This document shows positions 35,480 to 62,064 of a stretch of 64,000 nt of DNA, in pieces; within the stretch, counting starts at the first letter, position 1, and each line of letters starts with the position of its first letter. The position numbers were made by a program, and so were the translations under genes. The DNA comes from Acidimicrobiales bacterium (GTDB taxonomy: Bacteria > Actinomycetota > Acidimicrobiia > Acidimicrobiales > JBBRAZ01). Where the stretch lies: positions 8,728 to 72,727 of the forward strand of contig JBBRAZ010000018.1 of the NCBI GenBank assembly GCA_038206295.1. The letters are read 5' to 3'. Under the pieces are notes generated by a model, which was not told the origin of the DNA, did not search any database, and saw only the letters and a list, made by a program, of their open reading frames with translations.

Positions 35480-35486
35480 GGGAACC

Positions 35487-37439
35487 GTGGAGGAGCTCAT
35501 CTGGCTGATCCCCGCCCTGCCGCTCGCCGGCGCGCTGCTGCTGGTGGTCGCTGGCCGCCGTCTCGGCGAACCGGTGGCGGGCCTGGTCGCGACCGGCGCC
35601 ACGCTCGGGTCGTTCGCGCTGGCTCTCGGCATGTTCGCGAACCTGGTCTCGCTCGACGAGCACGAGCGGATCCTGACGCAGCGGCTCTTCACGTGGGTGC
35701 CCGCCGGCAGCTTCAGCGTCGACATGGGGTTCCTGCTCGACCCGCTGGCGATGACGATGGTCCTCTTCGTCACCGGCGTCGGCGCGCTGATCCACATCTA
35801 CTCGATCGGGTACATGCACGGTGACCCGCGCTTCCACCAGTTCTTCCTCTACCTCAACCTCTTCGTCGCCTCGATGCTGCTGCTGGTGCTCGGCGACAAC
35901 ATGCTGCTCACCTTCCTCGGCTGGGAGGGCGTCGGCGCCTGCTCCTACCTGCTGATCTCCTTCTGGTTCGAGGAGGAGGCCAACGCCAGCGCCGGCAAGA
36001 AGGCGTTCGTCACCAACCGCATCGGTGACTGGGGCTTCATGGTCGCCATGTTCTTCACCTTCACCACCTTCGGCACCCTGCAGTACGCCGAGGTGCTGAC
36101 CGGTGCCAGCAGCCTGGCCGAGACCACCGCCACGGCCATCGCCCTGCTCCTCTTCGTCGGCGCGGTGGGCAAGTCGGCGCAGATCCCGCTGTTCATCTGG
36201 CTCCCCGACGCCATGGCCGGCCCGACCCCTGTCTCCGCGCTCATCCACGCCGCCACGATGGTCACCGCCGGCGTCTTCCTGATGGTGCGCACCAGCCCGA
36301 TCCTCGTGGAGGCCGCCGACTGGGTGCCGACGACGATCGCGACGGTCGGCGCGCTCACCGCGCTCGTCGCCGCCACCATCGCGGTGGCCCAGAACGACAT
36401 CAAGAAGGTGCTCGCGTACTCCACGGTGAGCCAGCTCGGCTACATGTTCCTCGCTGTCGGCACCGGCGCCTACGTGGCCGCCATCTTCCACATGGTCACC
36501 CACGCCTTCTTCAAGGCGCTGCTGTTCCTCGGCTCCGGATCGGTCATCCACGGAATGGGCGACGAGCAGGACATGCGCCGCATGGGAGGTCTGCGGCGGT
36601 TCATGCCCGTCACCGCCGTCACCTTCATCATCGGTTGGCTGGCCATCGCTGGGGTGCCGCCGCTGGCGGGCTTCTGGTCCAAGGACGAGATCCTCCTCGG
36701 CGCCTGGGAGGAGAGCCCCGTGCTGTGGGCCATGGGTCTGCTCACCGCGCTGCTCACCGCGTTCTACATGAGCCGCCAGGTCTTCCTCACGTTCTTCGGG
36801 GAGCCGCGCTGGAGCCTCGAGGGCGACGGCGACGCCGCGGTCGACCCCGCGGCGGGCATGCCCGGTGACGAGCTCCCCGAGCCGAAGCCCGCTGGGTTCC
36901 ACCCGCACGAGTCGCCGTGGTCCATGACCATGCCGCTGGTGGTGCTGGCGTTCCTCGCCGTGGTCGCCGGCGGTCTCAACCTCCCCTTCAGCAAGGATCT
37001 CCACTTCCTCGAGTCCTGGCTCGAGCCCTCGCTCTTCGGCAACGGGCACCACAGCACCGCCGAGGGGAGCGAGAAGGTGGCGCTCGCCGTCGTCGCCATC
37101 GCGGCGGGTCTGGCGGGCATCGCCGGTGCCGCGGTCCTGTACCTGAAGCGCCGCGGCCGACCGGCGACCGTCGAGGCCGCCGTGCTGCGTCGCGGCTGGT
37201 ACATCGACTCGTCGGTCACCTGGTTCATGGGCGGACCGGGTCGCGCCGCGTTCGACGCCGTGGCCTGGTTCGATCGCACCGTCATCGACGGCGCGGTCAA
37301 CGGCGTGGGTGCCGCGGTGCGGCTCGTCGGCACCGGGGTGCGCCCGATGCAGAGCGGGTACGTTCGCACCTACGCGCTGACGTTGGGGCTCGGTGCGCTC
37401 GCGGTCCTCGTGCTGGTGCTCTCGAGGGTGGCGATCTGA
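35487..37439 (+). CDS. nuoL: NADH-quinone oxidoreductase subunit L (operon 1)
   Basis: FLGWEGVGACSYLLISFW, GKSAQIPLFIWLPDAMAGPTPVSALIHAATMV. 650 aa. Confidence 0.93.
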   Translation: MEELIWLIPALPLAGALLLVVAGRRLGEPVAGLVATGATLGSFALALGMFANLVSLDEHERILTQRLFTWVPAGSFSVDMGFLLDPLAMTMVLFVTGVGALIHIYSIGYMHGDPRFHQFFLYLNLFVASMLLLVLGDNMLLTFLGWEGVGACSYLLISFWFEEEANASAGKKAFVTNRIGDWGFMVAMFFTFTTFGTLQYAEVLTGASSLAETTATAIALLLFVGAVGKSAQIPLFIWLPDAMAGPTPVSALIHAATMVTAGVFLMVRTSPILVEAADWVPTTIATVGALTALVAATIAVAQNDIKKVLAYSTVSQLGYMFLAVGTGAYVAAIFHMVTHAFFKALLFLGSGSVIHGMGDEQDMRRMGGLRRFMPVTAVTFIIGWLAIAGVPPLAGFWSKDEILLGAWEESPVLWAMGLLTALLTAFYMSRQVFLTFFGEPRWSLEGDGDAAVDPAAGMPGDELPEPKPAGFHPHESPWSMTMPLVVLAFLAVVAGGLNLPFSKDLHFLESWLEPSLFGNGHHSTAEGSEKVALAVVAIAAGLAGIAGAAVLYLKRRGRPATVEAAVLRRGWYIDSSVTWFMGGPGRAAFDAVAWFDRTVIDGAVNGVGAAVRLVGTGVRPMQSGYVRTYALTLGLGALAVLVLVLSRVAI

Positions 37440-39079
37440 TGGGCCTGCTCGCAACGACCGAAGCTGCGGCGCACGCAGGCGATGTGCCGCTGCTGCCCCT
37501 GCTCGTGCTGACCCCGGTGGTCGGCGCGCTCCTGCTGCTGCTCGTGCCCGGGCGTCGCACCGAGCTCATCCGCCTCGTGGCGTTCCTCACCTCGGTGCTC
37601 GCCGCGGTGGCGAGCGTCTACGTCCTCGCCGAGTTCGACGCCGCCGATTCGGGCATGCAGCTCGTCTCGCACCGCACCTGGGTCGCGGACTTCGGCATCT
37701 CGTGGTTCCTCGGCATCGACGGGATCTCGCTGTTCCTCGTCGTGCTCACCGGCCTGCTGTTCCCGCTCACCATCATCGGGATCAGCCCCGGCCACGACGA
37801 CAAGGCGTACTACTTCTGGCTGCTGGTGCTCGAGGCCGGGTGCCTGGGCGTGTTCCTCGCCATGGACCTGTTCCTCTTCTTCGTCTTCTTCGAGATCGCG
37901 CTGGTCCCGATGTACATGCTCATCGGCGGGTGGGGCCACGGGAACCGCAGCTACGCCGCGACCAAGTTCTTCCTCTACACGATGGCCGGCTCCGCGCTGA
38001 TGCTCGTCGGCATCCTGACGCTGGTGCTGCTCAGCGCGGACGCCACCGGCGGGCCGACCTTCGACGTCCTGCGCCTCGGCGAGGCGCAGGCCCTCGCCCC
38101 GATGACGGCTCGCTGGGTGTTCTGCTCGTTCATGCTGGCGCTCGCCATCAAGGTGCCGGTGTTCCCGCTGCACACCTGGCTGCCCGATGCGCACACCGAG
38201 GCGCCGACGGCGGGCTCGATCATCCTCGCCGGCGTCATGCTCAAGATGGGCACCTACGGCTTCTTGCGCTTCGGGCTCTACCTCTTCCCGGAGGCGGCTG
38301 TGTGGGCTGCACCCGCGATGCTCACGCTCGGGGTGGTCGGCATCATCTGGGGCGCGGTGGTCGCCACCATGCAGAGGGACCTGAAGCGCCTCGTCGCCTA
38401 CTCGTCGGTCGCGCACCTCGGCTTCATCGTTCTGGGCACCTTCGCTCTCAACACCGAGGGGCTCCAGGGCGGCATCTTGCAGATGGTCAACCACGGCATC
38501 TCGACCGGTGCGCTGTTCCTCCTCGTCGGCCTCATCTACGAGCGTCGCCACACCCGTGAGATCAGCGAGCTCGGCGGGCTGCAGTCCGCTGCGCCGATGC
38601 TCGCAGCGGTGTTCGTGCTCGTGGTGTTCTCGTCGATCGGTCTGCCGGGGCTCAACGGCTTCGTCGGCGAGTTCCTCACGTTGCTCGGCGCCTTCATCTC
38701 ACATCGCTGGTGGGGGGTGGTCGCTGCCAGCGGCGTGATCCTCGCCGCGCTCTACCTGCTGTGGGCCTTCCAGCGCGTGTTCCACGGTCGAGCCGAGGGT
38801 GACAACGCGACGATGCCGGACCTCACCTGGAAGGAGGGCGTCGTGCTCGCCCCCTTCGTGCTGGCCATCATCGGCTTGGGTCTCTACCCGAGGCCCGTCC
38901 TCGAGCGGATCGAGCCATCGGTCGAGCGGCTGCTCGTGCACATGGACGCGCAGGTCGACGATTGGGAGCGGCCGGTGATCGAGCCGATCCAGATCGTGGT
39001 CGACGACGCCGAGGATGATCTCGGCGACGGCGGCGACCACGATGCCGGAGCAGATGAGCACGCGGAGGCCGGCCGATGA
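37439..39079 (+). CDS. nuoM: NADH-quinone oxidoreductase subunit M (operon 1)
   Basis: KVPVFPLHTWLPDAHTEAPTAGSIILAGVMLKMG. Acidic C-terminal tail. Confidence 0.93.
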   Translation: MGLLATTEAAAHAGDVPLLPLLVLTPVVGALLLLLVPGRRTELIRLVAFLTSVLAAVASVYVLAEFDAADSGMQLVSHRTWVADFGISWFLGIDGISLFLVVLTGLLFPLTIIGISPGHDDKAYYFWLLVLEAGCLGVFLAMDLFLFFVFFEIALVPMYMLIGGWGHGNRSYAATKFFLYTMAGSALMLVGILTLVLLSADATGGPTFDVLRLGEAQALAPMTARWVFCSFMLALAIKVPVFPLHTWLPDAHTEAPTAGSIILAGVMLKMGTYGFLRFGLYLFPEAAVWAAPAMLTLGVVGIIWGAVVATMQRDLKRLVAYSSVAHLGFIVLGTFALNTEGLQGGILQMVNHGISTGALFLLVGLIYERRHTREISELGGLQSAAPMLAAVFVLVVFSSIGLPGLNGFVGEFLTLLGAFISHRWWGVVAASGVILAALYLLWAFQRVFHGRAEGDNATMPDLTWKEGVVLAPFVLAIIGLGLYPRPVLERIEPSVERLLVHMDAQVDDWERPVIEPIQIVVDDAEDDLGDGGDHDAGADEHAEAGR

Positions 39080-40629
39080 GCCCGCTCGCCCTGCTCGCGC
39101 AGACCGAGGCCGTTCCCAACATCGACACGCCCATCATCGAGTGGAGCGCGGTGGCACCGATGCTAGTGCTCGGGGTCGGCGCGGTGCTGCTCCTCACGTT
39201 CACGTCGCTCGGGCGCATCCGACCCGAGCGCGGGACGACGACGCTGTTCACGGTCGTGGTGGCGCTCGGCGCCATGCTCGCCGCGGTGCCCCAGTGGGCG
39301 CAGGTGCAGGGGTGGACCGACTACCGGTGGATCGACGACGGCCACACGGGAGCGTGGACCGCCATCGGCGGCGCGGTCGGCGTGGACGGCTTCTCGGTCT
39401 TCATCACCTACATCCTGTGCATCTCGGTGATCCTCGTGTCGCTGCTGGCCGACGAGCACTGCCGTCGAGAGGGGATCGCCGGTCCCGAGCTGCACGCCCT
39501 GCTGCTCCTGTCCGCGACCGGCGGCGTCGTCATGGCGTCGGCCAACGACCTCATCGTCTTGTTCCTCGGCCTCGAGACGCTGTCGATCGCGGTCTACGTG
39601 CTCGTCGCGATGGATCTGCGGCGGATCCAGTCGCAGGAGGCGGGGTTCAAGTACTTCGTGCTGGGAGCGTTCGCGTCCGCGTTCCTGCTCTACGGCATCG
39701 CCATGATCTACGGCGCCACGGGCACGACGAACCTCGTCGGCATCGTCGACTTCCTCGCCGGCAACCTCGTCGCCGAGGACGCCCTGTTGCTCGCCGGCCT
39801 CTCGCTGCTCGTGGTGGGCCTGGGGTTCAAGGTGGCCGCGGTGCCGTTCCACCTGTGGACCCCCGACGTGTACGAGGGCGCCCCGAGCCCGGTCACCGCC
39901 TACATGGGCGCAGCGGTGAAGGCAGCAGCCTTCGCCGGCATGCTGCGGGTCCTGCTGCTCGGCTTCGGCAGCTACGACGGCACGTGGGTGCCGGTCATCG
40001 AGATCCTGGCTGCGCTGTCGCTGGTGGTCGGGGCGGTCATGGCCGTCGTGCAGACGAACGTGAAGCGGATGCTCGCCTACTCATCGATCAGCCACGCCGG
40101 CTTCCTCCTGGTGGGCGTGGCTGCCTCGCCGGAGGCCGGGACCGCGGACGTGCTCTTCTACCTCGCGGCGTACAGCCTGCTGGTCATCGGCTCCTTCGGG
40201 GTCGTCACCCTCGTGGGGCGCTCCGGCGACGCCCAGCACGACCTCGCCGACTACCGGGGCCTCGCCCAGGGATCGCCGGTGCTCGCCGCCATGTTGACGG
40301 TGTTCCTCCTCGCCCAGGCCGGCGTGCCGCTGACCTCCGGGTTCTTCGCCAAGTTCTACGTCATCGCCGGCGCGGTCGAGGCCCGGAGCTGGTGGCTGGC
40401 CATCGTGGCCATGCTCGCCTCGGTGATCGCCGCCTTCCTGTACCTGCGGATCATCGCTGCCATGTGGCTCAGCGACGACCCGGAGCCGCTTCGCGTCGAG
40501 GTGCCCTTCGCCGCCGGCCTGGCGCTGTGGGCGGCGCTGCTCGGCACCGTCGTCGTGGGCATCTTCCCGAGCATCCTCATCGATGCGGCTCGAGACGCCG
40601 TGCCGATGCTGGTCTCGCTGGCCCCGTAG
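39076..40629 (+). CDS. nuoN: NADH-quinone oxidoreductase subunit N (operon 1)
   Basis: KVAAVPFHLWTPDVYEGAPSPVTAYM. ATGA overlap with nuoM. Confidence 0.93.
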   Translation: MSPLALLAQTEAVPNIDTPIIEWSAVAPMLVLGVGAVLLLTFTSLGRIRPERGTTTLFTVVVALGAMLAAVPQWAQVQGWTDYRWIDDGHTGAWTAIGGAVGVDGFSVFITYILCISVILVSLLADEHCRREGIAGPELHALLLLSATGGVVMASANDLIVLFLGLETLSIAVYVLVAMDLRRIQSQEAGFKYFVLGAFASAFLLYGIAMIYGATGTTNLVGIVDFLAGNLVAEDALLLAGLSLLVVGLGFKVAAVPFHLWTPDVYEGAPSPVTAYMGAAVKAAAFAGMLRVLLLGFGSYDGTWVPVIEILAALSLVVGAVMAVVQTNVKRMLAYSSISHAGFLLVGVAASPEAGTADVLFYLAAYSLLVIGSFGVVTLVGRSGDAQHDLADYRGLAQGSPVLAAMLTVFLLAQAGVPLTSGFFAKFYVIAGAVEARSWWLAIVAMLASVIAAFLYLRIIAAMWLSDDPEPLRVEVPFAAGLALWAALLGTVVVGIFPSILIDAARDAVPMLVSLAP

Positions 40630-48338: not shown

Positions 48339-48704
48339 GTGTCGGACTTCCTGCGGTCCTACCTCACCGTCGGCATCTTCTGCGGCCTTGGCTTCGGCAT
48401 GGTCGCGGCCCTCCTGGGCCTGGGCAGCGTGCTGCGCCCGTCGCGCCCCCAGGGCCAGAAGTACCTGACGTACGAGTCGGGCGTCGATCCGGTGCCCGGC
48501 GGCTGGGGGCAGACGCAGATCCGCTACTACGTGTTCGCGCTCCTCTTCGTGCTCTTCGACGTCGAGGCGGTGTTCATCTTCCCGTGGGCCACCCGCGTCG
48601 AGGCGTACGGCGTGTTCGGCCTGGTCGAGATGGGCATCTTCATCGGGATCCTCGCCCTCGGGCTCATCTACGCGTGGCGCAAGGGGGTCCTCAAGTGGGC
48701 CTAG
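48339..48704 (+). CDS. nuoA: Complex I-like subunit A (operon 2)
   Basis: [23 protein letters not shown]. 121 aa from GTG 48339 (alternative GTG 48312). Confidence 0.85.
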
Positions 48705-49195
48705 TCGACAGCGGCCACTCGCCCAAGGCGCTCACCGCGCTGCTCAACACGGCGCGCAAGTACTCGCTGTGGGTCTACCAGTGGGGCCTCGCGTGCTGCG
48801 CCATCGAGATGGGCGCCGCCTTCGTATCGCCGCGCTACGACATCATGCGCCTGGGTGTGATCCCGTTCCCCGCCAGCCCCCGCCAGGCTGACCTGGTCAT
48901 CGTCTCGGGCACGCTCACCGACAAGATGGTGCCGTCGCTCGTCCGCCTCTACGAGCAGATGCCGGACCCGAAGTACGTCATCTCCATGGGATCGTGCGCC
49001 AACTGCGGCGGTCCTTACTGGGACAGCTACTCGGTGACCAAGGGCGTCGACCAGGTGCTGCCCGTCGACGTGTACATCCCTGGCTGCCCGCCGCGGCCCG
49101 AGGCGCTGCTCGAGGGCGTGATCCTGCTCCAGGAGCGGATCCAGAACGAGGACCCGGTCGAGCGCTGGAAGGGTGATCCCATTGTCGTCGGCTGA
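48695..49195 (+). CDS. nuoB: Complex I-like subunit B (operon 2)
   Basis: [34 protein letters not shown]. Confidence 0.9.
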
Positions 49196-49868
49196 CGCGG
49201 GCACCGAGGTCGAAGCGGTCGACGCGCCCCGCGACGAGGCGCTCGATGCCCTTCTGGCGATCTTCGGCGACGCGCTCGGCGACTCCGTGGTCGGCAGCCA
49301 CCAGCGCCCCGGAGGCGACCTGTGGGTCCGCGTCGCCGCCGAGGCGTGGGTCGCCGCCGGCGAGTGCGCACGGCACCGCGCCAAGCGACCGTTCTTCGAC
49401 TTCCTCTCCGTCATCGACTGGCTGCCGTCGCCGTTCGGGCGGGAGATGGACAGCGAGGTCGACACCATCGTCCACGGCGCCGCGGACAAGGAGGCACCGG
49501 CGATGGCCACCGGCGTCGCCGGCGGCGACACCCGGTTCCAGGTCTTCGCTCGGGTGGCGCCCGCGGGCCCCGGCCCCGGCGTGGTGCTCAAGGTCGACGT
49601 CCCCGATGACACGATGACGCTGCCCACGTGGGTGCCGGTGTACGTCGGTGCCGACTGGCACGAGCGCGAGGCGTGGGAGATGTACGGCGTGACCTTCGCC
49701 GGTCACCCCTACCTGCGCCACATCTACCTCCCCGGCGAGTTCGAGGGCCACCCGGGCCGCAAGGACTTCCCGCTCCTGGCGCGCAAGGTCAAGCCGTGGC
49801 CCGGCATCGTGGACGTCGAGCCAATGCCCGGCGCTGCCGATGACGAGGACTCGGAGGCGAGCGAGTGA
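49173..49868 (+). CDS. nuoC: Complex I-like subunit C (operon 2)
   Basis: [37 protein letters not shown]. Internal ~25-aa insertion and acidic tail. Start uncertain (GTG 49173 or TTG 49182). Confidence 0.85.
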
Positions 49869-51037
49869 CCGCCATCACCGACCGCGAGATGCGCGCGTAC
49901 GTGAGCCAGCAGGCAGCCGACGCACGCGTGAACGTCGAGATCGAGACCGAGGGGATGACCCTCAACATCGGCCCGCAGCACCCCGCCACGCACGGCACCC
50001 TGCGCATCGTCGTGAAGCTCGACGGCGAGCAGGTGATCGCGGCCGAGCCGATCATGGGCTACATGCACCGGGGCTACGAGAAGCTCACCGAGGTCCGGAC
50101 GTACCCCCAGATCACGACGCTCATCAACCGCATCGACTGGGTCGGCAGCTTCGCCAACGAGGTCCCGTTCGTCCTCGCCGCGGAGCAGCTCATGGAGGTC
50201 GAGGCCCCCGAGCGAGCCCAGTGGATCCGCACGATCCTCTTCGAGATGAGCCGCATCGCCAACATCGTGCTCTTCCTCGGCGACCTCGGCGCCCAGCTCG
50301 GCGGCGTCACGGCGGTCTTCTACGCCTTCCGCGACCGCGAGTACGTCCTCAACCAGATCGAGTCGCTGACCGGTGGCCGGTTCCACCCCAACTTCGACCG
50401 CATCGGCGGCCTGAAGGACGACCTGCCGAAGGGCTGGGTCGAGGAGACCAAGGTCGTGATGGAGAAGGTCCGTGGCTTCTGCGACGAGATCGAGGACCTG
50501 CTCGTCGGCAACGAGATCTTCCAGGCCCGCACCCGGGGGATCGGCGTCATCCCGCCCGAGGTCGGCCTCGCCTACGGCCTGTCGGGGCCCAACATCCGCG
50601 CCAGCGGTGTCGACTGGGACCTGCGCCGCGACGCGCCCTGCGGCCTCGTCTACGACGAGCTGGACTGGAAGGTCTGGACGCACCCCGACGGCGTCTCGTT
50701 CGCCCGCACCTGGGTGCGGCTCCAGGAGACCCGTGAGGCGACGAAGATCGTCGACCAGCTCCTCGACGGCCTGCCCGGCGGGCCGATCATGGCCAAGGTG
50801 CCGCGCATCATCAAGGTGCCTGCGGGCGAGGCCTACGTCGAGACGGAGAACCCGCTCGGTGCCATGGGCTACTACGTGGTGTCCAAGGGCGACCTCAACC
50901 CGTTCCGGGTCAAGATCCGCTCGGCGTCGTTCAACAACGTCTCGATCGTGCCGTGGATCATGCGCGGCGTCTACGTGCCCGACGTGATCACGATCCTCGC
51001 CTCGCTGTACTTCATCCTGGGGGACATCGACCGGTGA
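49865..51037 (+). CDS. nuoD: Complex I-like subunit D (operon 2), HRG-type
   Basis: [24 protein letters not shown] (Arg codon 50069-50071), C-terminal [13 protein letters not shown]. Confidence 0.92.
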
Positions 51038-52074
51038 GCGTGCTGGCGGACATCTCCGCACTCGATCCGTACTGGGCCCAGACCGTCCTCAAGGGCGCCG
51101 TCGTCGCGCTCGTCATCCCGACGGGCGCGCTCATCTTGGGCTGGACGTTCCTGTTCAAGATGATGGCGCACATGCAGAGCCGGCACGGCCCGATGGAGGC
51201 CGGCCCGCACGGCCTGCTCCAGCTCCTCGCCGAGGGCGTGAAGTTCCTCCAGAAGGAGGACCTCACCCCCGACGGAGCCGACTTGCGCGTCTTCCGCTGG
51301 GCGCCGGCAGTGGTGCTCGTGAGCACCTTCCTGCTCTACGTCGTCATCCCCGTCGGCCCCGACCTCATCGTCGAGGACCTGCCGACCGGCATCTACTACG
51401 CGCTGGCGGTCTCGTCGCTGTCGGTCATCGGCATCCTGATGGCGGGCTGGGGCTCGGCCAACAAGTACTCGCTGCTCGGCGGCCTGCGCGCCGCAGGCCA
51501 GCTCATCGCGTACGAGCTGCCGATGGTGCTCGCGGTGGTCGGCGTGGTCATCCAGGCGGGCACGCTGTCGATGCAGGGCATCGTCTACGCCCAGGCCGAG
51601 GGCTCCATCTTCGGCATCGACTGGTTCGGCAACCCGTTCATCATCACGCAGATCGTCGGGTTCGGGATCTTCCTCGTCGCCATCCAGGCCGAGCTCACGC
51701 AGCCGCCGTTCGACATGCCGGTCGCCGAGTCCGAGATCGTGGGCGGCTACCAGGTCGAGTACTCGGGCTTCCGCTTCCTCATCTTCTTCATGGGCGAGTT
51801 CGGCACGGCGTTCGCCTTCGCAGCCATCACCTCGGTGCTGTTCCTCGGCGGCTGGTCGGTGCCGTTCATCGACCCGAGCGACAACATCATGAACGTCATC
51901 GGGCCGATCGCCATGCTGACGAAGGTCATGTTCGTGTCGTTCCTCATCTTCTGGGCGCGGTTCACCTATCCCCGCTTCCGCGAGGACCAGCTCCAGAAGC
52001 TGGCGTGGAAGGTCCTCATCCCGCTCTCGCTCGTCAACATCGTCGTCACCGCGGTCCTGAAGGTGGTGTTCTGA
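51034..52074 (+). CDS. nuoH: Complex I-like subunit H (operon 2)
   Basis: [54 protein letters not shown] overlap with nuoD2. Confidence 0.92.
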
Positions 52075-52565
52075 TGCCTCCCAAGCTCCCCGGTCTCATC
52101 AAGGGCCTCGGCGTCACCTTCAAGGAGATGCTGAAGCCGACGGTGACCGTGCAGTACCCGCACGTCAAGGAGGCGCCCCCGACGCGGGCCCGTGGCGTGA
52201 TCGCGCTGCACGAGGAGAACTGCACCGCCTGCATGCTGTGCGTCCGCGAGTGCCCGGACTGGTGCATCTACATCGAGGGCCACAAGGTCCTGGCGCCGCC
52301 GCGACGCGAGGGGGGCAAGCCCCGCGCCAAGAACAAGCTCGACCGCTTCGACATCGACTACGCGCTGTGCATGTACTGCGGCATCTGCGTCGAGGTGTGC
52401 CCGTTCGAGGCGATCTTCTGGAGCCCGGAGTACGAGTTCTCCGAGCCGCGGATCGCGGACCTCCTCCACGACAAGACCCGCCTGGGCGAGTGGATGGAGA
52501 CCGTCCCCGAGTTCGAGCCGTACGAGGCGGGCGCCGAGGTCAAGATCAAGAAGGTGCCGCGCTGA
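52074..52565 (+). CDS. nuoI: Complex I-like subunit I (operon 2)
   Basis: [12 protein letters not shown] and [12 protein letters not shown], separated by a Lys/Arg-rich loop. Confidence 0.9.
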
Positions 52566-53056
52566 TGGTGGCCCAGAACATCGCCTTCGGCGTGATCGCC
52601 GCGATCATGATCGGCTCCGCGCTGCGCGTGGTCACCACCCCCAACATCGTGCACGCCGCGCTCTACCTCGTGCTGGTGCTCGCCGGCGCCGCGGCGCAGT
52701 TCCTGCTGCTCGCGGCGGAGTTCGTCGCCGTCACGCAGGTGCTCGTCTACATCGGCGCCATCGTCGTGCTGTTCCTGTTCGGCATCATGCTCACCAAGCG
52801 CGAGATGGGCAGCGAGGACGAGCTCGACAACGACCAGAAGCTTCTCGCCGGCGTCGTCGCCTTCGGTCTGCTCGGCGTGCTCGGTGGCACGTTGTGGGAC
52901 ACGTGGCGCGACGCCGAGTTCGGCGCCATCACGCCGCAGACAACAGCGCAGGTCAGCGACAGCATCTTCGGTCCGTACCTCATCGCGTTCGAGGTCATCT
53001 CGGTCCTCCTCCTCGCCGCCCTCATCGGGGCCATCGTCGTGGCCAGGAGGGACTGA
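52565..53056 (+). CDS. nuoJ: Complex I-like subunit J (operon 2)
   Basis: [20 protein letters not shown]. Start overlaps the nuoI2 stop. Confidence 0.87.
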
Positions 53057-53057
53057 C

Positions 53058-53357
53058 GTGCTGCTCAACCAGTTCCTCCTCCTCGCCGCCGTCCTGTTCT
53101 GCATCGGCGTCTACGGCGTGCTCGCCCGGCGCAACGGCGTCGCGGTGCTCATGTCCGTCGAGCTCATCTTGAACGCCGTGAACATCAACCTCGTGGCCTT
53201 CGGGGCCTGGCACGGCGACGTGGCCGGCGCCGTCTTCGCCCTGTTCGTGATCGCCGTCGCCGCCGCCGAGGTCGGCGTGGGCCTCGCGATCGTGCTGCTC
53301 CTGTACCGCAACCGCCAGAGCATCGACATCGATGACGTCGATCTCATGAAGGGCTGA
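53058..53357 (+). CDS. nuoK: Complex I-like subunit K (operon 2)
   Basis: 99 aa. [28 protein letters not shown]. Confidence 0.9.
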
Positions 53358-53360
53358 GCT

Positions 53361-55676
53361 GTGTCCGACACCTGGCTGCTCGAGAACGTGTGGATCATCC
53401 CGACGATCCCCTTCGTCTCGTTCTGGCTGATCCTCTTCTTCGGCAAGCGCCTCCCCGGCCGCGGCCACGAGATCGGCATCGCGTCGGTCGTCGCCGCGTT
53501 CGTGCTGGCCTGCATGGTGGGCGTGGCGTGGATCGGCCACGTCGACGACGCCGCGGCCGGCCACGGCGAGCCCGCGACCGAGGAGCACGGCACCGAGCCC
53601 GCCGCCGACGACCACGGCTTGGGCACCGGCGAGCTGTCCGCCGCGGTCGACACCGGCGACACGGCCGCCGCCGACGACCACGGCACCGAGGTGGCCGCGG
53701 AGCTGGCGGCCGAGGAGGAGCACGCGGCGGAGGGCGAGCACGCCGGGGTCGAGCCCATCTCGCGCCGGGTGGTGTGGCTGCAGTCCGACGGCGTCGAGAT
53801 CAACGCCGGCACCATGGTCGACGGGCTCACCGCGGTGATGCTCTTCGTCGTCACCTTCATCTCGCTGCTGGTGCACGTGTTCAGCACCGACTACGTGCAC
53901 GGCGACCGCCGCTACACGCACTACTTCGCCTTCCTCAGCCTGTTCACCGCCTCGATGCTGCTGTTCGTCATGAGCGACAACACGCTGCAGATGCTGGTCG
54001 GCTGGGAGCTCGTCGGCGTCTGCTCGTTCGCTCTCATCGGCCACTGGTGGGAGGAGAAGCCCAACTCCGACGCCGCCCTCAAGGCGTTCCTCACCAACCG
54101 CGTGGGCGACATGGGCCTCATCATCGGGGTGAGCATCCTGTTCATCGAGGCCGGCACCTTCGACGTGGTGCGCATCAACCAGATGGCGATCGCCGGTGAG
54201 CTCAACCACCTCGTCCTGCTCGTCTCGGCCTGCAGCCTCATCGGCGCGGTGATGTCGAAGTCCGGCCAGTTCTTCCTGCACACCTGGCTGCCCGATGCCA
54301 TGGCCGGACCGACGCCGGTCTCGGCGCTCATCCACGCCGCCACCATGGTGGTCGCCGGCATCTTCATGGTCGCCCGCCTCTACGGCGTGTTCTGGCACGG
54401 CCTGTCCATCGGCACCTCCAGCATCAACCTCCTGGCGCTCGTCGGCGGCACCACCACGCTGGTCGGCGGCTCGCTGGCGTTCGTGCAGAAGGACATCAAG
54501 AAGGTCCTCGCCTACTCGACCGTCTCGCAGCTCGGCTACATGGTCATGGCGCTCGGGGTCGGGGCGTGGACCGCGGCGATCTTCCACCTCTTCACGCACG
54601 CCTTCTTCAAGGCCTGCCTGTTCCTGGGCGCCGGCTCGCTCAGCCACGCCTGCCACCACAGCTTCAACATGGTCGACGACATGGGCGGGCTGCGGAAGCG
54701 GATGCCGATCACCCACGCCACGTTCGCCATCGGCACCCTGGCGCTGGCCGGCATCCCGATCTTCGCCGGCTTCTGGTCCAAGGACGAGATCCTCGCCGGG
54801 GCCATGCAGAACGGCGACGGCGGCTACCCGATCATGCTGGTCATGGGCCTCATGACGGCGTTCATGACCGCCGCCTACATGGGTCGCGCCTACTTCTACG
54901 CCTTCCTCGGCGAGTACCGCGGCGGCCACGACGACGCCCACGGCCACGCCGATGCGCACGACGCCCACGCGGCACCAGCCCATGACGTGCACGATGAGCA
55001 CGACGCCCACGCCGGCGAGCCCCACGAGTCCGGTCCCCGGATCGTGGTGCCGCTCATGATCCTGGCGTTCCTCTCGGTCGTCGCCGGCTTCGCCAACCTT
55101 CCCGGCGACCTCGGCTTCGCGACGGTCCCCGAAGATCTGGCGCACCGGTTCCAGCACTACGTGGAGCCGACGGGCAGCTACTTCCCTGCGGTCTCCCACG
55201 CCGACTTCGATCTCGGCCTGGCCATCGGCTCCAGCCTGCTGGCCATCAGTGGGCTGGTGGTCGCCTACCTCTTCTTCGTGCGCAACCTCGGCCCGCACGG
55301 GATCTCGCAGCGCAACGCGGTGTTCGGCTTCGGCCGCCGGGTGCTCGAGAACAAGTACTACCTCGACTGGCTGTACACCGACGTCATCGCCGGCGGCACC
55401 AAGGGCCCGATCGCCCGCGCTGCCTACTGGTTCAACCAGAACGTCATCGACGGCGTCGTCAACGGCGTCGGCGTCGGCGCCAAGCGCTTCGGGGTGGTCG
55501 TCTACGAGCAGATCGACCAGAAGGTGGTCGACGGGGCCGTCAACGGCTCCGGTGCAGGGGCCAGCGGCACGGGGGAGATCCTCCGCCACATCCAGACGGG
55601 CAGGGTGCAGCAGTACGGCGCACTGTTCTTCATCGCCACGGCGTTCCTCGCCGGTGTCTTCGTCGTGATCATCTAG
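53361..55676 (+). CDS. nuoL: Complex I-like subunit L (operon 2) with two His/Asp-rich insertions
   Basis: LVGWELVGVCSFALIGHWW, KSGQFFLHTWLPDAMAGPTPVSALIHAATMV. 771 aa versus 650 aa for the operon-1 copy. Confidence 0.92.
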   Translation: MSDTWLLENVWIIPTIPFVSFWLILFFGKRLPGRGHEIGIASVVAAFVLACMVGVAWIGHVDDAAAGHGEPATEEHGTEPAADDHGLGTGELSAAVDTGDTAAADDHGTEVAAELAAEEEHAAEGEHAGVEPISRRVVWLQSDGVEINAGTMVDGLTAVMLFVVTFISLLVHVFSTDYVHGDRRYTHYFAFLSLFTASMLLFVMSDNTLQMLVGWELVGVCSFALIGHWWEEKPNSDAALKAFLTNRVGDMGLIIGVSILFIEAGTFDVVRINQMAIAGELNHLVLLVSACSLIGAVMSKSGQFFLHTWLPDAMAGPTPVSALIHAATMVVAGIFMVARLYGVFWHGLSIGTSSINLLALVGGTTTLVGGSLAFVQKDIKKVLAYSTVSQLGYMVMALGVGAWTAAIFHLFTHAFFKACLFLGAGSLSHACHHSFNMVDDMGGLRKRMPITHATFAIGTLALAGIPIFAGFWSKDEILAGAMQNGDGGYPIMLVMGLMTAFMTAAYMGRAYFYAFLGEYRGGHDDAHGHADAHDAHAAPAHDVHDEHDAHAGEPHESGPRIVVPLMILAFLSVVAGFANLPGDLGFATVPEDLAHRFQHYVEPTGSYFPAVSHADFDLGLAIGSSLLAISGLVVAYLFFVRNLGPHGISQRNAVFGFGRRVLENKYYLDWLYTDVIAGGTKGPIARAAYWFNQNVIDGVVNGVGVGAKRFGVVVYEQIDQKVVDGAVNGSGAGASGTGEILRHIQTGRVQQYGALFFIATAFLAGVFVVII

Positions 55677-55693
55677 GGAGCGCTGAACGAGCC

Positions 55694-57370
55694 ATGGAAG
55701 AGTTCATCAACGACTGGGGCCTCACGGTCGCCACGTTCCTCCCCATCGTGGGCGCACTCGCGCTGCTGGTGGTGCCGAAGGATGAGGAGGGCACCATCAA
55801 GGGGTTCGCCCTGCTCGTCTCGCTGGCCACCGCGGCCATCGGCGTCGGCGTCATGGCGCAGTTCGACTACGACGACGCGGGCGCGCTGCAGTTCGTCTAC
55901 GAGCACGACTGGATCGACGTCATCCACAGCCGCTACATCGTCGGCATCGACGGCATCTCGCTGCCGATGTTCGCCTTGACGCTGCTCATCGTGCCGCTGT
56001 GCATCGTCTACTCGTGGAACCACTTCCCCGAGCCGCACAACCCCAAGGCCTTCCTGGCGCTGCTGCTCGTGCTCGAGACCGGCATGCTCGGCTCGTTCAT
56101 CGCCCAGGACCTCATCTTGTTCTTCGTCTTCTTCGAGCTCGTGCTGCTGCCGATGTACTTCATGATCGGCGTGTGGGGCGGGCCTGACCGCCAGTACGCC
56201 TCGATCAAGTTCTTCCTGTACACGCTGTTCGGCTCGGCGCTGATGATCGTCGCCTTCGTCGCCCTCTTCTTCGCGACCGACGGCCAGACGTTCGACATCC
56301 GCGTCGGGGTGGAGGGCGCGCTGCCGGCTGCGGCGGCCGGCATCCCGAAGACCACCGCGCTGTGGATCTTCGGCGGCATGTTCATGGGCTTCGCCATCAA
56401 GGTGCCGATGTTCCCGTTCCACACCTGGCTGCCCGACGCCCACACCCAGGCGCCGACGGTCGGCTCGGTCATCCTGGCCGCCGTGCTCCTGAAGCTCGGC
56501 ACCTACGGCTTCATCCGCATCGCGCTGCCGATCCTTCCCGAGGCCGCGGTCGAGTTCGCACCGTGGATCGGCCTGCTGGCGGTCATCGGCATCATCTACG
56601 GCGCGCTGGGCTGCCTCGCGCAGTCCGACATGAAGCGGCTCATCGCGTTCTCGTCGGTGGCGCACATGGGCTTCGTGATGCTCGGCATCGCGACGCTCAC
56701 GCCCTTCGGCATCAACGCCGCCATCTTCGGCATGGTCGCCCACGGCCTCATCACCGGGATGCTGTTCTTCATCGCCGGGTCCACCAAGGAGCGCTACCAC
56801 ACGCTCGAGATCTCACGGCTCGGCGGCCTGCTGGTCACCGCGCCGAAGATGGGTTGGATCCTCGGCCTGTGCACCATGGCGTCGCTGGGGCTGCCCGGCC
56901 TCGCCGGATTCTGGGGCGAGTTCCCCGCCATCCTCTCGGCGTACCGCCCCGGCGCCGGGATGCCCGAGGAGACGTTCCGGGCGTTCATGGTCATCGCAGC
57001 GCTGGGTACCGTGCTCGCCGCGGGCTACCTGCTGTGGCTGTACCAGCGGGTCGCGTTCGGCACGCCCAAGCCCGAGTGGGAGGGCCACGACATCCCCGAC
57101 GTGCAGCCGGCGGAGTGGATCGCCTGGCTGCCGCTGCTCGCCCTCATCCTGGGGCTCGGCATCTACCCGCACGCCATGTACCGGGTCATCGATCCGGCGG
57201 TGACCCAGCAGACGGTCTGCGCCGCGGTCGACCCCGCCGCGCCCGCGTGCCACGAGGACGACGCGGAGCCGTCCGACGACCACGCCGAGGACGCTGAGGA
57301 CGCTGAGGACGCCGACCACGGCGACGCCGTCGACGACCACGCCGCGCCCCTCGGCGCGGCGGGGGGCTGA
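55694..57370 (+). CDS. nuoM: Complex I-like subunit M (operon 2)
   Basis: KVPMFPFHTWLPDAHTQAPTVGSVILAAVLLKLG. Acidic/His-rich C-terminal tail. Confidence 0.92.
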   Translation: MEEFINDWGLTVATFLPIVGALALLVVPKDEEGTIKGFALLVSLATAAIGVGVMAQFDYDDAGALQFVYEHDWIDVIHSRYIVGIDGISLPMFALTLLIVPLCIVYSWNHFPEPHNPKAFLALLLVLETGMLGSFIAQDLILFFVFFELVLLPMYFMIGVWGGPDRQYASIKFFLYTLFGSALMIVAFVALFFATDGQTFDIRVGVEGALPAAAAGIPKTTALWIFGGMFMGFAIKVPMFPFHTWLPDAHTQAPTVGSVILAAVLLKLGTYGFIRIALPILPEAAVEFAPWIGLLAVIGIIYGALGCLAQSDMKRLIAFSSVAHMGFVMLGIATLTPFGINAAIFGMVAHGLITGMLFFIAGSTKERYHTLEISRLGGLLVTAPKMGWILGLCTMASLGLPGLAGFWGEFPAILSAYRPGAGMPEETFRAFMVIAALGTVLAAGYLLWLYQRVAFGTPKPEWEGHDIPDVQPAEWIAWLPLLALILGLGIYPHAMYRVIDPAVTQQTVCAAVDPAAPACHEDDAEPSDDHAEDAEDAEDADHGDAVDDHAAPLGAAGG

Positions 57371-57372
57371 TC

Positions 57373-58881
57373 GTGCCGCTGCTGCTCGCCGCCGAGGGGT
57401 TCGTGCGTCCGGTCATCGACTGGCACGCCTTCGCGCCCGAGCTGGTCCTCGCCGCGGTCATCGCGGTGCTCGTGCTCGTCGACTCGTTCACCCGCCCGGG
57501 GAACAAGTGGGCCGTGCCGTCGCTCGCCGGCATCGGGCTCCTGGCGACCGCCGTGCCGCTGCTGTCGCTGGTCTCCGACGGCACCGACCGCTCCATGTTC
57601 GGCGGGGCGTACGTCGTCGACGACTTCGCCCTGACGCTCAAGCTGCTCTTCGTCGCCTCCGCGTACGTGGTGGTCCTGCTGGCCACCAACTACATCGCCG
57701 AGGGCGACTACTGGGAGGGCGAGTTCTACACGATGCTGCTGTGCTCGGTGCTGGGCATGCTCGTCATGGCCAGCGCGCGCGACCTCATCACGATCTTCGT
57801 CGCCCTCGAGCTGCTCTCGATCCCCGCCTACCTCCTGGCCGCGTGGCGCAAGCGCGACCCGCGCTCCAACGAAGCCGGCCTCAAGTACTACCTGATGGGC
57901 GTGTTCGCCACCGCCGTGCTCCTGTACGGCATGTCGCTGCTGTACGGCGTCACCGGCTCCACGCTGCTGACCGACATCGGCGCCTACGTGCAGCAGGGCT
58001 CGAGCTCGACACCGATCGTCACCCTCGCGATCGTGCTGGTCATCATCGGGTTCGCCTTCAAGGTCTCCGCCGTGCCGTTCCACACGTGGGCGCCGGACAC
58101 CTACGAGGGCGCACCGACGCCGGTCGCCGCGTTCCTGGCCGTGGCGTCGAAGACCGCCGGGTTCGTGGCGCTGATGCAGCTGGTGGTCGTCGGCTTCCTC
58201 GGTCGCTCGGATGTGTACGAGCCGATGATCTGGGCGCTGGCGGTGGCGTCGATGACCGTCGGCAACCTGATCGCGATCCGCCAGGACAACGTGGTGCGCA
58301 TGCTCGCGTACTCCGGCATCGCGCAGGCCGGCTACATCCTGGCGCCGCTGGCGGTGGCGTCGCACGACCCGAACCAGGCCGTCGGCTCCATGGTGAGCTA
58401 CCTGATGATCTACGCCGCCATGAACCTCGGCGCCTTCGCGGTGATCATCGCCGCGGCGCGCAAGACGCGCTCCGCCGAGGTCGACAGCTTCAACGGCCTC
58501 TTCTCGTACGCGCCGGCGCTGGCGGTGACGATGAGCATCTTCCTGTTCTCGCTCGCGGGCATCCCGCCGCTCGGCGGCTGGTTCGCCAAGTTCCAGATCT
58601 TCTACGCCGTGATCGACGCCCAGACCACGTCGGCCTACGTGCTGGCGGTCATCATCGGCCTCAACTCGGTGCTGGCGCTCTACTACTACGCCCGGGTGGC
58701 CCGCGCGATGTGGTTCGAGGAGTCGCCAGACGGCGACGTGTCGCCGGTGCAGGTGCCGGTCTCGCTGCGAGCGGCGATCGGCATGTGCGCAGTGGCGACC
58801 GTCGTGGTCGGTGTGCTGCCGGGCCTTGTCGGCCACGTCAGCGAGACGGTCGGCCTCCTCGCCACCGCCGCCGGCCGCTGA
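57373..58881 (+). CDS. nuoN: Complex I-like subunit N (operon 2)
   Basis: KVSAVPFHTWAPDTYEGAPTPVAAFL. Confidence 0.92.
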   Translation: MPLLLAAEGFVRPVIDWHAFAPELVLAAVIAVLVLVDSFTRPGNKWAVPSLAGIGLLATAVPLLSLVSDGTDRSMFGGAYVVDDFALTLKLLFVASAYVVVLLATNYIAEGDYWEGEFYTMLLCSVLGMLVMASARDLITIFVALELLSIPAYLLAAWRKRDPRSNEAGLKYYLMGVFATAVLLYGMSLLYGVTGSTLLTDIGAYVQQGSSSTPIVTLAIVLVIIGFAFKVSAVPFHTWAPDTYEGAPTPVAAFLAVASKTAGFVALMQLVVVGFLGRSDVYEPMIWALAVASMTVGNLIAIRQDNVVRMLAYSGIAQAGYILAPLAVASHDPNQAVGSMVSYLMIYAAMNLGAFAVIIAAARKTRSAEVDSFNGLFSYAPALAVTMSIFLFSLAGIPPLGGWFAKFQIFYAVIDAQTTSAYVLAVIIGLNSVLALYYYARVARAMWFEESPDGDVSPVQVPVSLRAAIGMCAVATVVVGVLPGLVGHVSETVGLLATAAGR

Positions 58882-60023
58882 CCTCCACCGCCACCCCCGC
58901 CGCCGCGCTCGTCGCCGAGCAGGTCGCGCGCCACGGACCGGTCTCGTTCTCCACCTTCCTCGACCTCGCGCTGTACGACCCAGCCCACGGCTTCTACGCC
59001 GGCAGCGGCGGCCAGGCCGGTCGAGGAGGGGATTTCCTCACCAGCCCGGAGGTCGGTCCGCTGTTCGGCGCGGTCCTCGCTCGAGCGCTCGACGCCTGGT
59101 GGACCGAGCTCGGCGAGCCCGATCCGTTCGTCGTGGTGGAAGCCGGCGCCGGGCGCGGCGCGCTGGCGATCGCGGTGCGCGCCGCGGCGCCGCGTTGCGC
59201 GCCGGCCCTGCACTACGTCCTCGTCGAGCGCTCTGCGACGCTGCGGGCGAGTCAGGCCGAGCACCTCTCGCTCACGGTGCCGAGCCAGGTGCTGGGCGCG
59301 GCGGCCGGGCCTGATCCCGACGCAGGTTCGCTGCGTGGGACCGGTCCGCTGTTCACCTCGCTCGGTGAGCTGCCCGAGACCGCCATGACCGGTGTGGTCC
59401 TCGCCAACGAGCTGCTCGACAACCTGACGTTCGATCTGCTCGAGCGCACCGCCGAGGGCTGGGACGAGGTCCGGGTCGGCGTCGGAGCTGATGGCGAGCT
59501 CGTCGAGGTGCTCGTGCCCGCCCGTGAGGCCGATGGCGCGCTCGCAGCGCACCTCGCGCCCGGCGCGTCAGCGGGCGGGCGTCTGCCCCTGCAGCACCAG
59601 GCAGCCAGCTTCCTGCGAGAGGCACTCGCGCTCCTGGAGGCAGGCAGGGTCGTGCTCATCGACTACGCGGACACCTCGCAGCACCTCGTGGAGCGGGCGA
59701 CCGACGAGTGGCTGCGCACGTACCGCGACCACGGCCGCGGCCAGCGCCCGCTGGAGGCAGCTGGGCTGCAGGACGTGACCTGCGAGGTCGACGTCGACCA
59801 GCTGGCGCGCATCCGTCGCCCGGATGTGCAGCGCACCCAGGCCGAGCTCCTCGTGGCCCAAGGCATCGACGAGCTCGTCGACGAGGGCCGTGCCATCTGG
59901 GAGGAGCGTGGCCACCTCGGCGACCTCGCGGCGCTGCGGGGCCGCAGCCGCGTCCGGGAGGCGGAGGCGCTGTGCGACCCCGCCGGCCTCGGCGCCTTCA
60001 CCGTCCTCGAGTGGATCGTCTGA
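58878..60023 (+). CDS. MidA/NDUFAF7-family (DUF185) SAM-dependent methyltransferase
   Basis: [26 protein letters not shown] (SAM loop), [14 protein letters not shown]. 5-prime end uncertain: the only in-frame start-like codon near the conserved N-terminus is CTG 58878, overlapping the nuoN2 TGA. Confidence 0.8.
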
Positions 60024-60102: not shown

Positions 60103-62064
60103 ATGGCCGCCGAGCCCACGATCGAGGACTACTTCCACGAGGACCGGGTCTTCCCGCCGTCCGCCGAGTTCCAGGCCGCTGCGCTGGTCTCCGACCGCAC
60201 GCCCTACGACGAGGCGGCGGCGGACCGGGTCGGCTTCTGGGCGACGCAGGCCCGCGAGCACCTCAGCTGGTACGACGACTTCCACACCACCCTGGAGTGG
60301 GAGCTGCCGTTCGCGAAGTGGTTCGTGGGCGGGACGCTGAACGTCTCGTACAACTGCCTCGACCGCCATGTCGAGGCAGGCCGCGGCGACAAGGTCGCCT
60401 TCCACTGGGAGGGCGAGCCGGGCGACACCCGCACCATCACCTACGCGGCGCTGCTCGACGAGGTGGCCCGGTTCGCCAACGTGCTCAAGGGCCTCGGCCT
60501 CGAGCGAGGCGACCGGGTCGCCATCTACATGCCGATGATCCCCGAGCTGCCGGTCGCCATGCTCGCGTGCACCCGCATCGGCGTGGCCCACTCGGTCATC
60601 TTCGGCGGCTTCTCTCCGGACTCGATCATCGACCGGGTCAACGACGCCGAGGCGAAGGTCGTCATCACCGCCGACGGCGGCTACCGCAGGGGCGCCGCCG
60701 CGGCGCTCAAGCCCAACGTCGACGCCGCCGTCGGCTCCTGCCCGACGATCACCGGCGTGGTGGTGGTGCAGCGCACCGGCGGCGAGGTCGAGATGGTCGA
60801 AGGCCGCGACCACTGGTACCACGAGCTCATGGCCGACGCCTCCGCTGACTGCCCGCCTGAGCACATGGACAGCGAGGACCTGCTGTACCTGCTCTACACG
60901 TCGGGCACGACGGCCAAGCCCAAGGGCATCATGCACACCACCGGCGGCTACCTCGCCCAGGTGGCGTACACGCACAAGGTGGTGTTCGACCTCCGGCCCG
61001 AGACCGACGTGTACTGGTGCGCGGCGGACGTCGGCTGGGTGACCGGCCACAGCTACATCGTGTACGGGCCGCTGACGAACGGCTGCACCTCGGTCATGTA
61101 CGAGGGCACGCCCGACACCCCCGGGCGCGACCGGCTGTGGGACATCGTCGAGCGCTACGGCGTCACGCAGCTGTACACCGCGCCGACCGCCATCCGGATG
61201 TTCATGAAGTGGGGTGAGACCGAGCCCGCCGCGCACGACCTCTCCAGCCTGCGCGTGCTGGGGACCGTCGGCGAGCCCATCAACCCCGAGGCGTGGATGT
61301 GGTACCACGAGAACATCGGCGGCGAGCGGTGCCCGATCGTGGACACCTGGTGGCAGACCGAGACCGGCGCGCACATGATCACGCCGTTGCCGGGGGTCAC
61401 CACCACCAAGCCAGGCTCTGCCACCCACGCCATCCCGGGCGTCGTGGTCGAGGTCGTCGACGACGAGGGAAACCCCGTCGAGCGTGGAGGCGGCTACCTG
61501 ACGATCTCCGAGCCGTGGCCCGCGATGCTGCGCGGCATCTGGGGGGACCCGGAGCGCTACGCGGAGACGTACTGGAGCCGATTCCCCGGCCGGTACTTCG
61601 CCGGCGACGGCGCCAAGCTCGACGATGACGGGTACCTGTGGCTGCTCGGGCGCGTGGACGACGTCATGAACGTGTCGGGTCACCGCATCTCCACCACCGA
61701 GGTCGAGTCCGCGCTGGTCGACCACCACGCGGTGGCCGAGGCGGCGGTGGTCGGCGCCAACGACGCCCTCACCGGCCAGGCGATCGTCGGCTACGTGATC
61801 CTGCGTGGCAGCGCGGACGAGCACGACGACGCGCTTGTTGAGGAGATCCGCCAGCACGTCGCCACGAAGATCGGCCCGACCGCTCGGCCCAAGGCGCTGT
61901 TCGCGGTGCCGGACCTCCCCAAGACGCGCTCGGGCAAGATCATGCGTCGACTCCTGCGCGACGTCGCCGAGGGCCACGAGCTCGGCGACACCACCACCCT
62001 CGCCGATCCGGCGGTCGTCGAGGCCATCCGCCGCCGCGCCGAGGAGTCCCCGACCGAGGACTGA
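60103..62064 (+). CDS. acs: Acetyl-CoA synthetase
   Basis: [62 protein letters not shown]. Confidence 0.94.

Follow-up and report, generated by a model that had tools for sequence, protein, structure and literature searches.

We analysed 64,000 nucleotides (nt) of DNA from an Acidimicrobiales bacterium (assembly GCA_038206295.1, contig JBBRAZ010000018.1, positions 8,728 to 72,727; hereafter the window), which carries two operons for respiratory complex I. One of these, nuo2, comprises the 11 genes nuoABCDHIJKLMN without nuoE, nuoF and nuoG. A gene for an S-adenosylmethionine (SAM)-dependent methyltransferase of the MidA/NDUFAF7 family (58878..60023, plus strand; limits supported by homology) lies directly 3′ of nuoN2 in the same direction and closes the run as its twelfth gene. 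From homology and gene context, we consider it likely that MidA symmetrically dimethylates Arg69 of the NuoD encoded in nuo2 (NuoD2), helping NuoD2 to join NuoB2. An earlier reading of the window (the original prediction) had pointed to this enzyme and this residue, and had stated that the target arginine is present only in the NuoD whose operon bears MidA. This was borne out: the other complex I operon, nuo1, encodes a NuoD (NuoD1) with threonine at that position.

The open reading frame (ORF) of MidA has 381 codons and ends with TGA at 60021-60023. The three hallmark motifs on which the family assignment was first based were all found in its translation (59031-59069, 13 amino acids (aa); 59133-59168, 12 aa; 59400-59441, 14 aa). 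A hidden Markov model search, which had been proposed as a check, gave a match to Pfam PF02636 (Methyltransf_28) of 122.9 bits against a cut-off of 23.3, with an E value of 2e-35 and profile positions 1-237 of 249 covered; no model matched in the NCBIfam search of the protein. The 12-aa motif at 59133..59168 (plus strand) is the glycine-rich SAM-binding motif, and its aligned counterparts are VEMGPGRGTL in Dictyostelium MidA and IEIGPGRGTM in 1zkd. Together with the N-terminal DFxT(S/A)PE motif, it aligns with 4f3n, 1zkd, and 5ztz. Residues T55, S56, N177, E178, D181, and D262 are invariant across an alignment of 28 MidA sequences. The GC content at the three codon positions of 58878-60023 is 0.82/0.51/0.89 in a window of about 70% GC, a coding signature at such base composition.

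By sequence, the relatives in the PDB are a Burkholderia COG1565 protein (4f3n, E 5e-23), a Rhodopseudomonas DUF185 protein (1zkd), and Dictyostelium MidA (5ztz, E 1e-13). An AlphaFold2 model calculated from the 28-sequence alignment (predicted local distance difference test score, pLDDT, 92.5; predicted template modelling score, pTM, 0.91) has the seven-beta-strand methyltransferase core with the inserted domain specific to the family. When this model was used in a Foldseek search of the PDB, the six best matches were all members of the MidA family (template modelling (TM) score 0.69-0.78, E 1e-27 to 1e-21), with 4g67, 4f3n, 5zu0, 5ztz, and 1zkd at the top (TM 0.75-0.78), whereas methyltransferases from outside the family reached only about 0.3-0.37. 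On sequence profile and modelled fold, we regard membership of the MidA family as secure. The close homologues of the window protein are all from Acidimicrobiia, which led us to reject an origin in Streptomyces that the GC content and the pair of nuo operons had suggested. Its identity to the solved MidA structures is 22-27% (22-24% for those from Dictyostelium), and its subfamily has the motif ANELLDN in place of the (A/G)(N/Q)ExxDA(L/M)P of the proteobacterial and mitochondrial subfamilies.

The predicted methylation target, Arg69 of NuoD2, is encoded by CGG at 50069..50071 in the motif GYMHRGYEK, and NuoD1 has Thr77 (ACC, 27085..27087) in GYLHTGMEK at the corresponding position; both genes are on the plus strand. 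In an ungapped alignment, Arg69 corresponds to Thr64 of Thermus thermophilus Nqo4 and to the arginine of GLLHRGTEK in Drosophila, and Nqo4 position 64 was equated with bovine Arg85 by Rhein et al. and Carroll et al. (PMC3829151, PMC3750175). The cognate NuoD therefore contains the HRGxE target arginine. The original prediction took the histidine of this motif for the quinone-site histidine; this did not hold, as the quinone histidine is NuoD2 His43 (Nqo4 His38), 26 residues upstream. The HRGxE arginine sits instead beside the iron-sulfur cluster N2 (PMC8042128).

A reciprocal difference was found in NuoB. NuoB2 has Thr73 (ACG, 48911..48913, plus strand) in VSGTLTDKM, which aligns to AGTLTNKM of mouse NDUFS7, and NuoB1 has Arg82 (CGG, 25983..25985, plus strand) in VAGRVSQKM, which aligns to VAGRLSKKM of Nqo6 (2fug_6) and thus to T. 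thermophilus Arg83. The stretch around Arg82 is identical in NuoB of M. smegmatis (8e9g_B). Hameedi et al. showed that the threonine of T. thermophilus Nqo4 is offset by Nqo6 Arg83, a position that is threonine in mitochondria (PMC8042128). The operon nuo1 has this Thermus-type intersubunit arrangement, Thr in NuoD1 and Arg in NuoB1, and nuo2 has the opposite one, Arg in NuoD2 and Thr in NuoB2; both states occur in the same genome, at a distance of about 23 kb. Because NuoB1 and NuoB2 carry the reciprocal Arg and Thr, the difference between the two NuoD proteins reads as one half of a coordinated pair and not as a stray substitution. As judged from the alignments, the arginine near N2 would come from NuoB in complex 1 and from NuoD in complex 2, the latter as in mitochondria, Paracoccus, and E. 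coli. An arginine in NuoD is the common state, which alone is no sign of methylation, and the threonine-type NuoD1 is the unusual member of the pair. The four cysteine ligands of cluster N2 can be read directly in NuoB2, in a 16-aa stretch and IPGCPP, and these align to NDUFS7. Among solved structures, NuoB2 matched NDUFS7 best (6e-53), followed by the proteins of Paracoccus (6e-49), Thermus (4e-45), and M. smegmatis (3e-44); NuoB1 is nearest to NuoB of M. smegmatis and Thermus.

We used a MidA profile to scan one genome per species, which returned more than 590 relatives. The best 80 were kept, all of them metagenome-assembled genomes of Acidimicrobiia, and their MidA proteins share 47-62% identity with that of the window. 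Each of the two scans, of genomes and of metagenomes, stands for its best 80 loci and for this one class; two alphaproteobacterial contigs were the loci from outside it. In all 78 of the genome loci with upstream DNA, nuoN2 is located upstream of MidA on the same strand. Measured between the stop of nuoN2 and the first MidA residue in the alignment, the gap is at most 150 nt for 65 of these loci; 6 others have 151-300 nt, and the remaining 7 have 0.9-3.6 kb. In comparison, the gap between MidA and the acetyl-CoA synthetase gene (Acs) that follows it is at most 150 nt in only 26 of 72 loci; insertions are tolerated far more at this second junction than between nuoN2 and MidA. Four more distant MidA homologues (37-47% identity) likewise close nuo2, and one of the four (locus L085) has no Acs nearby.

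The reverse search, which started from NuoD2, fetched metagenome loci with NuoD2 78-84% identical to that of the window, 35 of them with sequence beyond nuoN2. MidA directly follows nuoN2 in 33 of the 35 (gap 6-144 nt, with one of 568 nt). In locus L139 (7060-8112), MidA is located directly upstream of nuoA2, between nuo1 and nuo2. The motif GYMHRGYEK was present in each of the 50 MidA-selected loci that cover NuoD (48 loci, plus L086 and L087), and the threonine of NuoB2 in each of 26. GYMHRGYEK was also found in 80 of 80 metagenome loci, a count that we do not use as evidence, YMHRGYEK having been among the search patterns. The linkage between MidA homologues and HRG-type nuoD in related genomes, which the original prediction had named as a check, was thus recovered within Acidimicrobiia. 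Two loci show other arrangements around the operon. In L157 (2-922), MidA is found some 7 kb upstream of nuoA2. In L085 (2557-4205), nuoI and nuoJ are split apart by three genes, for DUF4178, PspA/IM30, and PspAA, and nuo2 still ends with MidA.

In mitochondria, NDUFAF7 methylates Arg85 of NDUFS2, a step that comes before the NDUFS2-NDUFS7 subcomplex is formed (PMC3829151). By analogy, MidA of the window is probably the bacterial counterpart of this assembly step. MidA would act as a class I SAM-dependent protein arginine methyltransferase carried by an operon without NuoEFG, and would symmetrically dimethylate Arg69 as NDUFAF7 does Arg85 of NDUFS2 and as occurs at Arg65 of Paracoccus Nqo4. 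Arg69 is predicted to pack against cluster N2 at the interface between NuoD and NuoB; its methylation before or during assembly of the quinone (Q) module would aid docking of NuoD2 onto NuoB2. We propose the docking role because the methylation by human NDUFAF7 precedes the NDUFS2-NDUFS7 subcomplex and because of the key-and-lock idea that was put forward together with the Arg/Thr intersubunit switch (PMC8042128). In complex 1, the equivalent guanidinium would be supplied by Arg82 of NuoB1, so that the substrate would be neither needed nor offered. Co-transcription with nuo2 would tie the supply of the enzyme to that of its substrate. Of the dedicated complex I methylation and assembly module that had been suggested for the window, the enzyme family, the place in the operon, and the restriction of the arginine to the cognate NuoD stand; methylation and a part in assembly are predictions from homology and gene context.

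A number of observations weigh against this assignment of function, and they bear on the linkage, the substrate, the complex, and the gene itself. As to the linkage, MidA is absent within 2.5 kb 3′ of nuoN2 in L091, the locus with the closest relative of NuoD2 (84% identity). In L084, which has the closest relative of MidA (78% identity), MidA sits behind a PIN-toxin gene. All linked loci belong to one class in which the wider gene order (Acs, YajQ, EF-Tu) is conserved, and part of the linkage signal is therefore common descent. The stretch after nuoN2 in L091 (18691-21170) resembles coding sequence of the opposite strand. In L084, the PIN-domain gene and a short antitoxin-like ORF upstream of it (141-764), a VapBC-like pair, precede MidA, which has its own ATG start and is followed by Acs, as in the window.

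These loci raise the possibility that the gene order was simply inherited, without a functional tie to nuo2, and that the enzyme serves another pathway, for instance that of Acs, or a general target. In addition to the shared neighbourhood, which also includes HAD_PNKP, the loci L084, L035, L051, and L059 are consistent with this, since MidA stays by Acs and apart from nuoN2 in them, and so are the alphaproteobacterial MidA genes, which are not near nuo. However, the nuoN2-MidA junction is the tighter of the two, L085 retains the pairing of nuo2 with MidA in the absence of Acs, MidA in L139 has moved and yet arrived at the head of the same operon, and the one known role of the family is in complex I. 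We regard inherited order alone as very unlikely. Acs as a functional partner was ranked low, given that its adjacency to MidA is much looser than that of nuoN2 and that L085 lacks it.

As to the substrate, the function of prokaryotic MidA has been inferred solely in silico (PMC12455994), and the same arginine in E. coli, Arg249 of NuoCD, is unmodified (PMC3750175). Since E. coli NuoCD carries the arginine without the modification, the HRGxE motif by itself does not predict methylation. MidA could be a true accessory methyltransferase of nuo2 whose substrate is another subunit, or a residue other than Arg69 of NuoD2. Gene context and family membership say nothing on the choice of substrate, and both the ANELLDN motif, which departs from the proteobacterial and mitochondrial one, and the low identity to the solved structures leave room for a different target. 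Against this, no substrate of the family is known other than the arginine of HRGxE in NDUFS2/Nqo4 (PMC3829151, PMC3750175), and the arginine is invariant in the linked NuoD2 sequences and missing from the unlinked NuoD1. Another substrate appears unlikely on this balance.

As to the complex, nuo2 has no NADH module, and the electron donor of 11-subunit complexes is unknown (PMC3144371, PMC11238625). Furthermore, position 92 of NuoD2 is tryptophan (TGG, 50138-50140) where Nqo4 has the quinone ligand Tyr87. Of the canonical ligands of the quinone headgroup, Nqo4 His38 and Tyr87, NuoD2 thus keeps the histidine as His43 and has the tyrosine replaced. The tryptophan is present in all 50 MidA-selected NuoD2 sequences, and NuoD1 keeps the tyrosine. 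The 11-subunit complex I papers that we checked make no mention of a tryptophan at this position. Because the quinone-ligand tyrosine is replaced, nuo2 may behave unlike a textbook complex I.

A bolder reading takes the two arginine placements as an orthogonality lock between the paralogues. A pairing of NuoD1 (Thr) with NuoB2 (Thr) would miss the arginine that stabilises N2, and one of NuoD2 (Arg) with NuoB1 (Arg) would clash; methylation of Arg69 by MidA would then be the step that licenses NuoD2 and commits it to NuoB2. In such a case, nuo2 would depend on MidA, and its acceptor chemistry, given the tryptophan in place of the quinone-ligand tyrosine, would be non-canonical. We hold this combination to be doubtful, and continue to prefer the simpler proposal in which methylation of Arg69 aids docking onto NuoB2.

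As to the gene itself, a scan for in-frame starts found no ATG, GTG, or TTG between the GTG at 58785 and the GTG at 59133. The stop codon of nuoN2 is TGA at 58879-58881, and the MidA frame is shifted by one base relative to nuoN2. Position 58878 is the first base of a CTG, a non-canonical start that overlaps the nuoN2 stop as cTGA. The nearest canonical start upstream in frame, the GTG at 58785..58787 (plus strand), is located within the 3′ end of nuoN2, 31 codons 5′ of 58878. Homologues are 370-396 aa long, and their alignment with the window protein takes in everything from residue ~5 onwards. In most of them, a canonical start falls between about -4 and +19 relative to the aligned N-terminus; a few likewise have none there. 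The publicly annotated protein (P0001, 296 aa) starts at the GTG at 59133 and lacks the conserved N-terminal 85 residues, including DFLTSPE. The true start may be the near-cognate CTG at 58878, coupled to the nuoN2 stop, or the GTG at 58785. A scan of 47000-62500 for promoters and terminators yielded no promoter-like sites, and terminator-like sites were at the number expected from shuffled sequence.

The start region could also mean that translation of the gene is poor in this genome, or that the gene is decaying here, irrespective of what other members of the family do. The CTG without a canonical start near the expected N-terminus, the ATG that the closest relative has at the place of a GCC in the window, and the truncated deposited protein without its DFLTSPE motif all fit with decay. 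On the other hand, all 381 codons are open and homologous and have a normal GC content by codon position, the GTG at 58785 could serve and would give an extension of 31 residues, a few homologues show the same start pattern, and a near-cognate CTG could be used through translational coupling. We therefore think decay quite improbable, though not so far-fetched as a purely inherited gene order. The description of MidA as "fused" to the end of the operon does not apply to the proteins, which have separate frames, with nuoN2 ending at its own stop codon. An ORF of 838 aa (57507-60023) was rejected as a high-GC open frame that overlaps nuoN2 and is not a gene.

The operon nuo2 extends over 48339..58881 on the plus strand. 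Each of its 11 genes has a Pfam match, confirming the 11-subunit operon with MidA behind nuoN that had been read from the sequence, and their limits come from an ORF choice based on GC content at third codon positions: nuoA2 (48339-48704), nuoB2 (48695-49195), nuoC2 (49182-49868), nuoD2 (49865-51037), nuoH2 (51034-52074), nuoI2 (52074-52565), nuoJ2 (52565-53056), nuoK2 (53058-53357), nuoL2 (53361-55676), nuoM2 (55694-57370), and nuoN2 (57373-58881; PF00361). The best NCBIfam model for NuoD2 is NF008974, the short NuoD type of 366 residues. The operon nuo1 (25271..40629, plus strand) has 14 genes, nuoA to nuoN including nuoE, nuoF, and nuoG; genes A-H and N were identified by Pfam, and I-M by ORF position and size only. 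The two operons are separated by an insert of 7.7 kb (40767-48261) that carries an ABC-2 transporter pair, a large glycosyltransferase of two domains, a sulfotransferase, and, on the minus strand, an unassigned ORF. Tandem nuo1 and nuo2 operons were also found in several relatives, and in L148 (8298-8446) about 150 nt lie between nuoN1 and nuoA2.

Upstream of nuo1 is a respiratory cluster (17433-24347) with genes for cytochrome b (20709-21500), a Rieske protein (22351-23196), and a c-type cytochrome (23196-24347), and with a geranylgeranyl-reductase-like flavoprotein on the minus strand (17433-18701). Downstream of MidA, Acs (60103..62064, plus strand; PF16177, PF00501, PF13193) is a conserved neighbour. 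Across the class, the genes 3′ of MidA are conserved: Acs, a HAD_PNKP phosphatase, and YajQ (DUF520) occur there in the window (60103-63313) and in most related loci. This neighbourhood often has GNAT acetyltransferases close by, and EF-Tu, SecE, and NusG are located further downstream.

The original prediction held such a module to be uncharacterised in bacteria. This was overstated: symmetric dimethylation of Arg65 of Nqo4 was demonstrated experimentally in Paracoccus denitrificans (PMC3750175, 2013), a role of bacterial MidA in methylation of NuoD was put forward from in silico work (Shahul Hameed et al. 2018, according to PMC9006661 and PMC12455994), and the gene order has been published for Ca. 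Actinomarinales. The enzyme family, the modification, and the gene order are already in the literature, and the gain is incremental. In the literature that we searched, we did not find the contrast that the two paralogues show at the target residue, the NuoB switch that goes with it, or a quantified linkage across the class. These make the lineage an unusually clean natural design for testing methylation of NuoD by a bacterial MidA: one genome has two complex I paralogues, one with the arginine and the enzyme in its operon, the other with the arginine on NuoB and no enzyme in its operon. The findings support the idea that the relationship between NDUFAF7 and NDUFS2 is older than mitochondria and extends beyond the proteobacteria.

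Human NDUFAF7 and Dictyostelium MidA (5ztz, 5zu0) share with the window MidA the Pfam family, the fold, and the DFxT(S/A)PE and SAM motifs. NDUFAF7 targets the arginine of the HRGxE motif in the NuoD orthologue (PMC3829151), an arginine that the cognate NuoD2 also has. However, NDUFAF7 is an unlinked nuclear gene, whereas MidA of the window is encoded within the operon of its presumed substrate; its partner complex, unlike that of NDUFAF7, has no NADH-oxidising module. Complex I of Paracoccus has the same arrangement as nuo2, Arg in NuoD and Thr in NuoB, with the arginine actually dimethylated (PMC3750175); it is a 14-subunit, NADH-dependent enzyme, while nuo2 has 11 genes. In alphaproteobacteria, MidA was inferred in silico to be responsible for the methylation of Nqo4 (PMC9006661). 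The two alphaproteobacterial MidA genes that we examined are located downstream of lgt, without a nuo gene within 10 kb, in contrast to the window MidA at the end of nuo2. On both of these Bradyrhizobiaceae-like contigs (L089, 9585-10582; L090, 9343-11114), MidA is directly 3′ of lgt, which encodes prolipoprotein diacylglyceryl transferase, and the gene calls are split in a way typical of frameshifted long-read assemblies. One database protein, P0295, carries both the lgt and the MidA Pfam domains. The nuo cluster of Rhodobacter capsulatus is said in an in silico paper to hold a SAM-methyltransferase gene, urf7 (PMC9036352).

The gene set without nuoE, nuoF, and nuoG is shared by nuo2 and those complex I-like enzymes that have 11 subunits (Moparthi and Hagerhall 2011; Desulfitobacterium hafniense; PMC3144371, PMC11238625). 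NuoD2, with its tryptophan at the position of the quinone-ligand tyrosine, sets nuo2 apart from these enzymes, and the word "methyltransferase" does not occur in the texts of PMC3144371 and PMC11238625. Closest in arrangement is the cluster that Bulzu et al. described in Ca. Actinomarinales, also of the Acidimicrobiia, with an 11-subunit nuo operon followed by NDUFAF7 (PF02636), which they call an accessory assembly component, and a 14-subunit operon nearby (bioRxiv 10.1101/2021.02.01.429150). This cluster (heliorhodopsin, 11-subunit nuo, NDUFAF7, htpX, pspE) is essentially the arrangement of the window in the same class. However, htpX and pspE follow NDUFAF7 there, whereas Acs follows MidA in the window, and the scanned neighbours of nuo2 include no heliorhodopsin or iron-uptake genes. 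The gene order is given in passing in that report, and a comparison of NuoD and NuoB residues is absent as far as its text shows.

Thermus thermophilus, with Nqo4 Thr64 and Nqo6 Arg83, is an exact match to nuo1 of the window, and the NuoB arginine is also found in M. smegmatis. Unlike Thermus, the window genome has both states of the switch, and only the version with the arginine on NuoD is linked to MidA.

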